From Escherichia coli (GTDB lineage: Bacteria > Pseudomonadota > Gammaproteobacteria > Enterobacterales > Enterobacteriaceae): 64,000 nt of DNA. Position 1 is the first letter of the stretch, and each line of letters begins with the position of its first letter. The notes beneath the pieces were generated by a model. The model was not told where the DNA came from and searched no databases. It saw only the letters and a list, made by a program, of their open reading frames with translations. The stretch lies in the NCBI RefSeq assembly GCF_017348835.2, contig NZ_CP071375.1; one strand, given 5' to 3'. Made by a program: the position numbers and the translations under genes. Positions 23,578 through 26,268 of the stretch are shown here, piece by piece.

Positions 23578-24530
23578 CGCAGACTTCCGCATTTCATTTT
23601 GAATCGCTGGTGTGGGACTGGCCGATTGCCATCTACCTGTTTTTGATTGGTATTTCTGCCGGTCTGGTGACGCTGGCCGTGCTGTTACGTCGCTTCTACC
23701 CGCAGGCGGGCGGTGCAGACAGTACGTTGCTGCGCACCACGCTGATTGTCGGGCCGGGCGCGGTGATCCTCGGTCTGTTGATCCTCGTCTTCCACTTGAC
23801 AAGACCGTGGACCTTCTGGAAGCTGATGTTCCACTACAGTTTTACCTCGGTGATGTCGATGGGGGTGATGCTGTTTCAGCTCTACATGGTGGTGCTGGTG
23901 CTGTGGCTGGCGAAAATCTTTGAACATGATTTGCTTGCCCTGCAACAACGCTGGTTGCCGAAGCTGGGGATCGTGCAAAAGGTTCTGAGCCTGCTGACGC
24001 CCGTTCATCGCGGACTGGAAACGCTGATGCTGGTGTTGGCGGTGCTGCTGGGGGCTTATACCGGCTTTCTGCTGTCGGCGCTGAAATCGTATCCGTTCCT
24101 CAATAACCCGATCCTGCCGGTGCTGTTCCTCTTCTCCGGCATCTCGTCCGGTGCGGCGGTGGCGCTGATCGCCATGGCGATACGCCAACGCAGTAACCCG
24201 CATTCCACGGAAGCGCACTTTGTTCACCGGATGGAAATCCCTGTGGTATGGGGTGAAATCTTCCTGCTGGTGGCGTTTTTTGTCGGTCTGGCGCTGGGCG
24301 ATGACGGTAAAGTGCGTGCGCTGGTGGCGGCATTGGGCGGCGGTTTCTGGACGTGGTGGTTCTGGCTTGGTGTCGCCGGGCTGGGGCTGATTGTGCCAAT
24401 GTTGCTCAAACCGTGGGTCAATCGCAGTTCCGGCATTCCTGCCGTGCTGGCGGCGTGTGGAGCCAGCCTAGTCGGCGTGTTGATGTTGCGCTTTTTCATT
24501 CTCTACGCCGGGCAGTTAACGGTGGCGTAA
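23574..24530 (+). CDS. nrfD: Integral membrane quinol dehydrogenase subunit NrfD
   Basis: 318-aa polytopic ORF overlapping nrfC stop by 4 nt. Confidence 0.95.
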   Translation: MTQTSAFHFESLVWDWPIAIYLFLIGISAGLVTLAVLLRRFYPQAGGADSTLLRTTLIVGPGAVILGLLILVFHLTRPWTFWKLMFHYSFTSVMSMGVMLFQLYMVVLVLWLAKIFEHDLLALQQRWLPKLGIVQKVLSLLTPVHRGLETLMLVLAVLLGAYTGFLLSALKSYPFLNNPILPVLFLFSGISSGAAVALIAMAIRQRSNPHSTEAHFVHRMEIPVVWGEIFLLVAFFVGLALGDDGKVRALVAALGGGFWTWWFWLGVAGLGLIVPMLLKPWVNRSSGIPAVLAACGASLVGVLMLRFFILYAGQLTVA

Positions 24531-24585
24531 GCCAGAACAGAGGTGGTTTCTGGACGTATTCCTTCCTGAAGTCGGTTTTCTGGCG

Positions 24586-26268
24586 TTGTTGTTAAGTCTC
24601 GGGGTCAACGTGTTGACCCCGTTGACGGCCTTTGCGGGAGTGCGGTTGCGCTGGCCTGCCATGATGCGACTCACTTGCATCGGCATTCTGGCACAGTTCG
24701 CGCTCCTGCTGCTCGCCTTTGGCGTACTGACGTATTGTTTTCTCATCAGCGATTTCTCGGTCATTTATGTCGCCCAACATAGCTACAGCCTGCTGTCGTG
24801 GGAACTCAAACTGGCGGCGGTATGGGGTGGTCATGAAGGTTCGCTGCTGCTTTGGGTTCTGCTGCTTTCCGCCTGGAGCGCGCTGTTTGCCTGGCATTAT
24901 CGGCAGCAAACCGATCCGCTATTTCCGCTGACGCTAGCCGTTTTATCTCTCATGCTCGCCGCACTGCTACTGTTTGTAGTGCTGTGGTCCGATCCCTTCG
25001 TGCGGATATTTCCACCAGCAATCGAAGGCCGCGATCTCAATCCGATGCTGCAACATCCCGGTCTTATCTTTCATCCACCGCTGCTTTACCTTGGCTATGG
25101 CGGTTTGATGGTAGCGGCGAGCGTGGCGCTGGCGAGTCTACTGCGCGGCGAGTTTGATGGTGCCTGCGCCAGAATTTGTTGGCGCTGGGCACTACCTGGC
25201 TGGAGCGCATTAACGGCGGGGATCATCCTCGGTTCCTGGTGGGCCTATTGCGAACTGGGCTGGGGCGGCTGGTGGTTCTGGGATCCGGTGGAAAACGCCT
25301 CTTTATTACCCTGGCTTTCTGCCACTGCGCTGCTGCACAGTTTGTCCCTGACACGCCAGCGGGGGATTTTCCGCCACTGGTCGCTGCTGCTGGCGATAGT
25401 TACTCTGATGCTGTCGCTGCTGGGCACCTTAATTGTCCGTTCTGGCATTCTGGTTTCGGTTCATGCGTTCGCACTGGATAACGTCCGCGCCGTGCCGTTG
25501 TTCAGCCTGTTTGCACTGATTAGCCTTGCGTCTCTGGCTCTGTATGGCTGGCGAGCGCGGGACGATGGCCCGGCGGTGCGTTTTTCGGTGTTATCGCGGG
25601 AAATGTTAATCCTCGCTACGCTGTTGCTGTTTTGCGCAGTGCTACTGATCGTGCTGGTGGGAACGCTTTATCCGATGATTTACGGCCTGCTGGGCTGGGG
25701 ACGCCTCTCCGTTGGCGCGCCGTATTTTAACCGCGCGACGTTACCGTTTGGTCTGTTGATGTTGGTGGTGATTGTGCTGGCGACGTTTGTCTCTGGTAAA
25801 CGCGCGCAGCTTCCGGCGCTGCTGGCGCATGCGGGCGTGCTGTTATTTGCCGCAGGGATCGTTGCCTCCAGCGTCAGCCGTCAGGAAATCAGCCTGAATT
25901 TACAGCCGGGCCAGCAGGTGATGCTGGCAGGATACACCTTCCGTTTTGAGCGCCTCGATCTACAAGCCAAAGGCAATTACACCAGCGAAAAAGCGATAGT
26001 GGCGCTGTTTGACCATCAGCAACGCATTGGTGAATTAACGCCGGAGCGGCGTTTTTACGAAGCACGTCGTCAGCAAATGATGGAACCGTCAATTCGCTGG
26101 AACGGCATCCATGACTGGTATGCGGTCATGGGTGAAAAAACCGGAGCGGATCGTTACGCTTTTCGTTTGTATGTACAAAGCGGTGTGCGCTGGATCTGGG
26201 GGGGAGGATTGTTGATGATTGCGGGCGCATTGTTAAGCGGATGGCGGGGGAAGAAGCGCGATGTATAA
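24586..26268 (+). CDS. nrfE: Haem lyase NrfE (CcmF-like)
   Basis: Large polytopic ORF; in-frame upstream codons LPEVGFLALLL have no ATG/GTG, so the true start is uncertain (ORF track uses TTG at 24586). Confidence 0.85.
   Translation: MLLSLGVNVLTPLTAFAGVRLRWPAMMRLTCIGILAQFALLLLAFGVLTYCFLISDFSVIYVAQHSYSLLSWELKLAAVWGGHEGSLLLWVLLLSAWSALFAWHYRQQTDPLFPLTLAVLSLMLAALLLFVVLWSDPFVRIFPPAIEGRDLNPMLQHPGLIFHPPLLYLGYGGLMVAASVALASLLRGEFDGACARICWRWALPGWSALTAGIILGSWWAYCELGWGGWWFWDPVENASLLPWLSATALLHSLSLTRQRGIFRHWSLLLAIVTLMLSLLGTLIVRSGILVSVHAFALDNVRAVPLFSLFALISLASLALYGWRARDDGPAVRFSVLSREMLILATLLLFCAVLLIVLVGTLYPMIYGLLGWGRLSVGAPYFNRATLPFGLLMLVVIVLATFVSGKRAQLPALLAHAGVLLFAAGIVASSVSRQEISLNLQPGQQVMLAGYTFRFERLDLQAKGNYTSEKAIVALFDHQQRIGELTPERRFYEARRQQMMEPSIRWNGIHDWYAVMGEKTGADRYAFRLYVQSGVRWIWGGGLLMIAGALLSGWRGKKRDV

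Follow-up and report, generated by a model that had tools for sequence, protein, structure and literature searches.

The heme-lyase gene nrfE of the Escherichia coli nrf operon raises the question of where its translation begins. In the window (the whole stretch of DNA that was analyzed, 64,000 nucleotides), which contains this operon, nrfE follows nrfABCD and is itself followed by nrfF and nrfG, as indicated by the RefSeq annotation of the identical locus and of the K-12 locus; the same order is found in Salmonella and other relatives, and nrfF and nrfG overlap nrfE and each other. The last upstream stop codon in the nrfE frame is TAA at 24517–24519, and the frame, open from 24520, then reads RWRKPEQRWFLDVFLPEVGFLALLLSLGVNVLTPL.... 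The first ATG, GTG or TTG of this frame in the ORF track is TTG 24586 (ORF 24586–26268, 560 amino acids). A sequence-only reading of the window had stated that no in-frame ATG or GTG lies between the nrfD stop codon and 24586, which was confirmed by a codon scan; TTG is absent from this interval as well. The same reading had noticed that the hydrophobic NrfE frame extends upstream of TTG 24586. This extension is real: a conserved hydrophobic sequence, DVFLPEVGFLAL, is encoded there and is kept as protein in other genera. In a scan of the frame from 24520 for NTG and ATH codons, the only candidates before TTG 24586 were CTG 24550 and CTG 24580. The features of the junction and of the proposed gene are the following.

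23574–24530, plus strand: nrfD coding sequence, ending with the stop codon TAA at 24528–24530 (ORF list, and RefSeq annotation of the identical E. coli locus mapped onto the window)
24540–24548, plus strand: Shine-Dalgarno site GAGGTGGTT, with the core GAGGTG at 24540–24545 (predicted duplex with the 3' end of 16S rRNA)
24550–24552, plus strand: CTG, proposed as the nrfE start codon (called by PGAP in RefSeq E. coli genomes, comparison of homologous codons, and counts of a 31-mer in E. coli genomes)
24550–26268, plus strand: nrfE coding sequence as proposed, 572 codons and the stop codon (match to NF007691; stop coordinate from the ORF list)

The Shine-Dalgarno duplex predicted for CTG 24550 (-12.7 kcal/mol) is the strongest of the region, all other in-frame candidates having values of -7.1 or weaker, and the spacing from its GAGG core to the CTG is 6 nucleotides. 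This codon, located 19 nucleotides past the nrfD stop codon, is also the only near-cognate codon upstream of the N-terminal M-x-P-E-x-G motif of the family. The second candidate, CTG 24580, was rejected as a start, having a Shine-Dalgarno value of only -3.9 kcal/mol and a position after the conserved P-E-x-G motif. Judged from these sequence features together with the family, comparative and population data described below, it is likely that nrfE starts at CTG 24550–24552, read as fMet, and encodes a protein of 572 amino acids. The sequence-only reading had suggested either a rare start codon or coupling to nrfD. A rare start is favored because of the strong Shine-Dalgarno site, the cross-genus conservation described below and the use of this CTG by PGAP, whereas coupling is only made plausible by the 19-nucleotide gap.

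Whether the protein predicted from CTG 24550 has the N-terminus expected of its family was addressed with profile matching, family alignments and structural modeling. The predicted NrfE begins with MDVFLPEVGFLALLL, and it matched the NCBIfam profile NF007691 (NrfE) with 1157.5 bits against a cut-off of 394, residues 2–571 corresponding to profile positions 1–572 of 573. Two features within its N-terminal region are relevant here.

24562–24648, plus strand: codons of transmembrane helix 1, residues 5–33 (AlphaFold2 model and Kyte-Doolittle hydropathy)
24565–24576, plus strand: codons of P6-E7-V8-G9, the conserved P-E-x-G motif of the CcmF/NrfE family (family alignment)

Among 70 diverse CcmF/NrfE members, the consensus start was MxPELG and E7 was conserved in at least 90%. 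The invariant columns in these 70 members included W238, G239, G240, W242, W244 and D245 of the WWD motif, and H95, H175, H263, H305 and H427. The P-E-x-G motif starts at residue 3 in 31 of 150 representatives, and in most family representatives their own residue 2 aligns to residue 5 of the query. An ATG or GTG is located two codons ahead of the P-E motif in 69 of 79 loci. An M-x-P-E-x-G N-terminus leading directly into helix 1 is obtained only if translation starts at or before 24562; the protein from CTG 24550 starts with MDVFLPEVG and thus has three extra residues relative to the family N-terminus. The AlphaFold2 model contained a helix at residues 5–33 (pLDDT of 86, 98 and 97 for its blocks, 92.7 overall), and residues 5–33 would form transmembrane helix 1, bearing the P-E-x-G motif. 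Kyte-Doolittle windows of 19 residues gave values of 1.45–1.94 when starting from residues 1–13 and below 1.0 from residue 16. The only solved structure matching the sequence was that of Thermus thermophilus CcmF (6ZMQ), which aligned from residue 46 and was uninformative on helix 1.

CcmF, the System I heme-lyase paralog represented by E. coli ccmF and T. thermophilus CcmF (PDB 6ZMQ), has the same arrangement of M-x-P-E-x-G followed directly by helix 1, and the invariant histidines and the tryptophan-rich (WWD) motif for heme handling are common to both proteins. The two differ in their start codons. Translation of ccmF almost always begins with ATG, placed two codons ahead of the P-E motif (64 of 79 loci), whereas the nrfE clade of Escherichia, Salmonella and Citrobacter has F or L at the position of this ATG and a proposed CTG start three codons earlier.

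The conservation of this start was examined in related loci and in E. coli genomes. A contig scan of genomes recovered mostly ccmF and only six close nrfE loci, and further nrfE relatives were added individually. The homologous codon was CTG in eight sequences from four named genera, being found in E. albertii, a divergent Escherichia strain, Salmonella, three Citrobacter genomes and the Enterobacter-labelled BIGb0383. It was GTG in L005, TTG-ATG in Pectobacterium and ATG in Budvicia. Of 5420 E. coli genomes with the locus, 5412 matched a 31-mer containing the CTG, and none matched a version with ATG, GTG or TTG. The nrfD-nrfE gap (19 nucleotides in E. coli, 8 in Salmonella and 1 in C. sedlakii) differs in both length and sequence and does not align between the 19- and 8-nucleotide versions; similarity picks up exactly at the CTG. 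Within nrfE codons 1–12, variable sites numbered 6, 1 and 10 at codon positions 1, 2 and 3, respectively. Ahead of the CTG, Salmonella, two Citrobacter genomes and BIGb0383 have a comparable Shine-Dalgarno site, GGTGAT (-9.9 to -10.1 kcal/mol, about 6 nucleotides of aligned spacing), and relatives with an ATG start had a weaker site (-5.8) than those with CTG (-9.9 to -12.7). C. sedlakii had no clear Shine-Dalgarno site at the CTG (-3.0) and carries a TTG three codons upstream and a GTG two codons downstream of it, suggesting that the exact nrfE start may differ between lineages. The neighboring leucine codon 11 (CTG) was equally invariant in the same eight close sequences; that one base does not vary in E. 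coli and a small number of related genera carries no strong statistical weight.

Four relatives (Salmonella, two Citrobacter genomes and BIGb0383) carry an in-frame TGA two codons upstream of the CTG, where it overlaps the Shine-Dalgarno site, and their nrfE frame is open for just one codon ahead of the CTG. These genomes leave no room for another start upstream of the conserved motif. The same TGA bears on a different possibility, in which the upstream codons have no dedicated start and are translated as part of an NrfD-NrfE fusion, produced through programmed frameshifting immediately ahead of the nrfD stop codon. Such a fusion would be consistent with the E. coli arrangement, in which nrfE is in the +1 frame with respect to nrfD and this frame is open from 24520, eight nucleotides ahead of the nrfD stop codon. 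However, the frame relation is not conserved: counted from the first base of the nrfD stop codon, the CTG begins 22 nucleotides on in E. coli (frame offset 1) and 11 nucleotides on in Salmonella (frame offset 2). In addition, the strong, correctly spaced Shine-Dalgarno site argues for de novo initiation. A fusion is extremely unlikely, and was rejected on the grounds of the frame difference between E. coli and Salmonella and the TGA in the relatives.

Initiation at CTG 24550 was also weighed against the starts located downstream, which are the sole ATG, GTG or TTG options and were picked by gene finders and K-12 curators.

24586–24588, plus strand: TTG of the ORF track, codon 13 of the proposed gene, internal leucine (weak Shine-Dalgarno site, -5.7; polymorphic in E. 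coli)
24610–24612, plus strand: GTG, the nrfE start in K-12 MG1655 (b4074, 552 amino acids; K-12 nrfE begins 80 nucleotides after the nrfD end), here codon 21, valine
24646–24648, plus strand: TTG, start of the 540-amino-acid annotations beginning MRWPAMM... (protein clusters P0002–P0004 and P0009), here internal Leu33

If NrfE started at one of these codons (560, 552 or 540 amino acids), the conserved upstream part would be an untranslated leader. Hydropathy alone does not exclude this for TTG 24586, since a hydrophobic segment of 19 residues would still be left (window value 1.77). However, the Shine-Dalgarno values were weak (-5.7 for 24586, -7.1 for 24610 and -6.9 for 24646, compared with -12.7), and all three starts would remove E7, which is nearly invariant, along with the P-E-x-G motif, and would shorten the confidently modeled helix 1, of which a start at GTG 24610 keeps only 13 residues. 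Furthermore, variation in the 12 codons upstream of TTG 24586 falls mainly on third positions, and their translation can be aligned between genera, unlike the intergenic gap, which does not align. The candidate codons themselves are not maintained: the triplet at 24586 reads CTG in 433 E. coli genomes (O157:H7 among them) and TTG in 4672, and seven of the eight compared relatives have CTG or CTA there; the codon at 24610 was CTG in BIGb0383 and GCG in L005. A downstream start with an untranslated leader is accordingly regarded as improbable. The doubt that the sequence-only reading had cast on TTG 24586 was borne out; with its synonymous TTG/CTG polymorphism in E. coli, this triplet behaves as, and by this comparison is, an ordinary internal leucine codon.

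A mixture of starts was considered as well, with initiation mostly at CTG 24550 and a fraction at TTG 24586 or GTG 24610, which would yield N-terminally truncated isoforms. CUG initiation has been reported at 1–2% of AUG in E. coli (bioRxiv 10.1101/063800), and the weakness of CTG, together with the presence of an in-frame TTG and GTG within the next 20 codons, would be compatible with such a mixture. However, the downstream codons have no good Shine-Dalgarno sites and are not conserved as starts, and isoforms shortened in this way would be missing some or the whole of helix 1 and would likely have an inverted or destabilized topology, judging from hydropathy and the model. Mixed initiation is considered about as improbable as an exclusively downstream start.

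With CTG 24550 as the preferred start, the existing annotations can be compared. The PGAP pipeline of RefSeq already annotates this codon as the nrfE start; this call is homology-driven and is thus not independent of the comparative argument. At least four nrfE starts are in use in public databases (572, 552, 540 and 535 amino acids). In the K-12 MG1655 version (b4074), the first 20 residues are probably missing, and with them most of helix 1 and the nearly invariant glutamate.

According to the proposed mechanism, the site at 24540–24548 would position the 30S subunit so that CTG 24550 is decoded by the initiator tRNA as fMet, and TTG 24586, GTG 24610 and TTG 24646 would be read as internal codons. 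As nrfD and nrfE would be carried on the same polycistronic mRNA with a gap of 19 nucleotides, ribosomes finishing nrfD may also feed the nrfE start, and this gap makes coupling to nrfD translation plausible. The RNA fold of 24490–24610, computed to look for structure masking the ribosome-binding site, was no better than that of shuffled sequence (-34.6 kcal/mol, z = -0.88). A promoter and terminator scan detected no internal promoter at the nrfD-nrfE junction, and terminator-like hits were at chance level.

Because CUG initiates at about 1–2% of AUG in E. coli, the CTG probably holds NrfE low relative to NrfABCD, and the same codon may lower NrfF and NrfG, the products of the overlapping genes that follow nrfE. 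ATG, GTG and TTG are each one mutation away from CTG 24550, yet are found at this position in no E. coli genome of the set; since every start codon is decoded as fMet, a swap to any of them would not alter the protein. A tentative explanation, which we consider possible but somewhat doubtful, is that CTG is more than a tolerated accident and has been maintained by selection as a weak start, always with a strong Shine-Dalgarno site, since before the split of Escherichia, Salmonella and Citrobacter. Such selection would keep NrfE(FG) at a low ratio to NrfABCD although all are made from a single transcript, possibly with synthesis of the heme lyase being sensitive to the level of IF3 or to nrfD translation.

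Weak starts are known from other E. coli genes. The AUU start of infC is the classic case; it is discriminated by IF3 and serves IF3 autoregulation. Like that proposed for nrfE, it is a conserved non-canonical start codon that lowers initiation; the role proposed for the nrfE start, in contrast, is the tuning of stoichiometry. Closer in kind are hda and yfjD of E. coli K-12, the CTG starts of which were verified by start-codon mutagenesis (EcoGene 3.0, PMC3531124). Like nrfE, both are chromosomal genes with a conserved N-terminus upstream of the first canonical start, and in both the predicted start is a CTG with a ribosome-binding site ahead of it; the earlier annotated start of yfjD was a TTG nine codons downstream (PMC3531124), a close parallel to TTG 24586. 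They differ from nrfE in that their starts are confirmed by mutagenesis whereas that of nrfE, which is absent from the EcoGene 3.0 list, is predicted from sequence; moreover, the nrfE CTG is inside an operon, 19 nucleotides past the preceding stop codon, where coupling may contribute. A search of a paper library found no report in which the nrfE start was addressed by N-terminal analysis of the protein, by mutagenesis of the start codon or by profiling of initiation. A preprint on recoding (PMC11195188) mentions another CTG start, which is not that of nrfE.

In practical terms this is an ordinary annotation issue, as the CTG start is already in RefSeq and the K-12 reference gene is probably 20 codons short. 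Cloning, tagging, modeling or recoding nrfE by the K-12 coordinates would produce a truncated protein or omit the start and ribosome-binding site that the gene natively uses. Once verified, nrfE would join the few E. coli chromosomal genes shown to have a CTG start (hda, yfjD), and would provide a clean natural case of a weak start codon setting subunit ratios in an operon.

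The window derives from the E. coli chromosome. Of 5426 complete E. coli genomes, 5420 were matched by a 401-nt query spanning the nrfD-nrfE junction, and the matched genes carry the annotations nrfD and nrfE; the genome search returned 5421 nrfD-nrfE matches, including two copies in one genome and four matches on records typed as plasmid. The following features were located at the junction, where codons and residues of nrfE are numbered from CTG 24550.

24517-24519, + strand: TAA, last upstream stop codon in the nrfE frame (frame translation)
24528-24530, + strand: TAA, nrfD stop codon (ORF list)
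24540-24548, + strand: predicted Shine-Dalgarno site GAGGTGGTT (duplex with the 16S rRNA 3' end, -12.7 kcal/mol)
24586, + strand: TTG, nrfE start in the mechanical ORF list

After the TAA at 24517-24519 the nrfE frame reads RWRKPEQRWFLDVFLPEVGFLALLLSLGVNVLTPL, and a scan for in-frame NTG and ATH codons within 24520-24586 identified only CTG 24550 and CTG 24580. Translation and codon scan thus bore out in all details the sequence-only reading, which had described a hydrophobic nrfE frame open upstream of TTG 24586 without an in-frame ATG or GTG. Two further mechanical ORFs, 80 and 82 aa long, lie across the junction in other frames (24353-24595, + strand, and 24516-24764, - strand) and show no sign of being genes. 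The scan of the junction for promoters and terminators found no promoter and only chance-level terminator-like matches, and folding indicated no significant RNA structure there. An NrfD-NrfE frameshift fusion was rejected, because E. coli and Salmonella differ in the relative frame of the two genes and the nrfE frame of relatives is closed by a TGA.

Family comparisons and structure prediction indicate that residues upstream of TTG 24586 belong to the protein. When representatives at 50% identity were searched exhaustively, a large share of the 150 best hits had their own residue 2 aligned to query residue 5; these proteins begin M-[ILM]-[PAG]-E-[ILV]-G, and a hydrophobic helix comes next. The comparison with CcmF/NrfE N-termini proposed earlier placed the family motif upstream of TTG 24586: 70 diverse aligned members had the consensus start MxPELG, with at least 90% conservation at E7 (numbered in the 572-aa protein). 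Of 79 genomic loci, 64 have ATG and 5 have GTG two codons ahead of the P/A-E motif. The NCBIfam NrfE model NF007691 matched residues 2-571 with 1157 bits, and position 2 of TIGR03145 aligned to residue 5. The AlphaFold2 model (mean pLDDT 92.7) contained a helix at residues 5-33 (block pLDDT 86/98/97), in agreement with hydropathy analysis, in which a start at GTG 24610 left no membrane-spanning segment there. The true nrfE start must therefore be no later than codon 5, and in that stretch CTG 24550 is the sole near-cognate codon.

The homologous codon is CTG in E. albertii, a divergent Escherichia strain, Salmonella, Citrobacter sp. FP75, C. werkmanii, C. sedlakii and 'Enterobacter' sp. BIGb0383, and GTG at exactly this position in a metagenomic relative (85% identity). 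TTG-ATG occupies the homologous position in Pectobacterium, and in Budvicia ATG precedes IPDLG. Only 8 nt separate nrfD from nrfE in Salmonella, FP75, C. werkmanii and BIGb0383; the nrfE frame of these four has a TGA two codons ahead of the CTG, which leaves CTG alone to start the conserved sequence. The intergenic sequence varies in length and content among genera, with similarity returning exactly at the CTG. In codons 1-12, codon positions 1/2/3 hold 6/1/10 variable sites, a coding pattern. In C. sedlakii (L086, 1190-1225) the gap is deleted and the CTG stands 1 nt after the nrfD TAA, without a Shine-Dalgarno site; PGAP places the start at a TTG three codons upstream, overlapping nrfD, and other gene callers at a GTG two codons downstream. 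A shift of the nrfE start in this lineage is possible.

Within E. coli, codons were tested with a 31-mer centred so that all 28-nt seeds included the tested codon. Codon 1 was CTG in 5412 matching genomes, and ATG, GTG or TTG in none. This invariance is weak evidence alone, since codon 11 (CTG) was equally invariant among eight close sequences. Codon 13 (24586-24588) was TTG in 4672 genomes and CTG in 433, including O157:H7 and ATCC 8739, an ordinary synonymous Leu polymorphism.

The possibility that nrfE starts at a downstream canonical codon is very unlikely: such a start would lose E7 and part of helix 1, and these codons have poor Shine-Dalgarno sites (-7.1 kcal/mol or weaker for the remaining in-frame candidates) and no conservation, codon 13 being CTG or CTA in seven of eight relatives compared and codon 21, the K-12 GTG, being CTG or GCG in two of the eight. 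Mixed initiation, at CTG 24550 plus downstream codons, found no support and is likewise improbable.

A different Shine-Dalgarno site, AAGGTGAT (-9.9 to -10.1), precedes the CTG in Salmonella, two Citrobacter genomes and BIGb0383, where the aligned spacing equals that in E. coli (about 6 nt by manual count). Weaker sites (-5.8) occur in the ATG-start relatives, Pectobacterium and locus L087. With E. coli and E. albertii included, sites before CTG range from -9.9 to -12.7 kcal/mol, versus -5.8 before ATG, and in this very small sample (loci L004, L007-L010 and L087) the weaker start codons seem to go with the stronger Shine-Dalgarno sites.

These comparisons establish the CTG codon together with its Shine-Dalgarno site and conservation, and show that upstream residues are required; judged from sequence, nrfE very probably starts at CTG 24550. 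The earlier suggestion of a rare start codon thus appears right, CTG 24550 combining conservation in relatives, the best Shine-Dalgarno site and sole availability at or before codon 5.

At least four different nrfE starts are in use among public annotations. RefSeq PGAP uses the position equal to 24550 (572 aa) in a 100%-identical strain and in a divergent (88%) strain, and the 572-aa protein cluster has 5145 members; its representative, P0001, begins MDVFLHEVG, a strain variant in which His replaces the conserved Pro6 of the N-terminal motif. In K-12 MG1655, where the sequence is identical and the CTG is present, b4074 starts 80 nt past the nrfD end, at GTG 24610 (552 aa). TTG 24646 is the start in large clusters of 540-aa proteins (N-terminus MRWPAMM), and ATG 24661 that in cluster P0025 (535 aa, MMRLT). 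The CTG 24550 start is already encoded in the RefSeq annotation and the NCBIfam model; the case is one of annotation disagreeing with the K-12 reference and not of new biology.

In C. werkmanii (L008, 1501-3711) the ORF from the nrfE CTG has 737 codons and is an in-frame NrfE-NrfF fusion; among proteins P0084-P0120, lengths of 737-740 aa are found repeatedly, in several Citrobacter species and in some Salmonella. The two genes, nrfE (575 codons) and nrfF, are separate in Salmonella L004 and Citrobacter FP75. Fusions of 665 aa in E. coli are probably frameshifts or assembly errors, because each has just one or two member sequences.

CUG initiation in E. coli uses fMet-tRNA at about 1-2% of the AUG rate (10.1101/063800). 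CTG starts have been verified for hda and yfjD, the latter previously mis-annotated at a downstream TTG (PMC3531124). Initiation at nrfE may also draw on ribosomes that finish nrfD 19 nt upstream. Given the overlaps among nrfE, nrfF and nrfG in the RefSeq annotation of the identical locus, the weak CTG codon would hold the heme lyase NrfEFG at a low level compared with NrfABCD.
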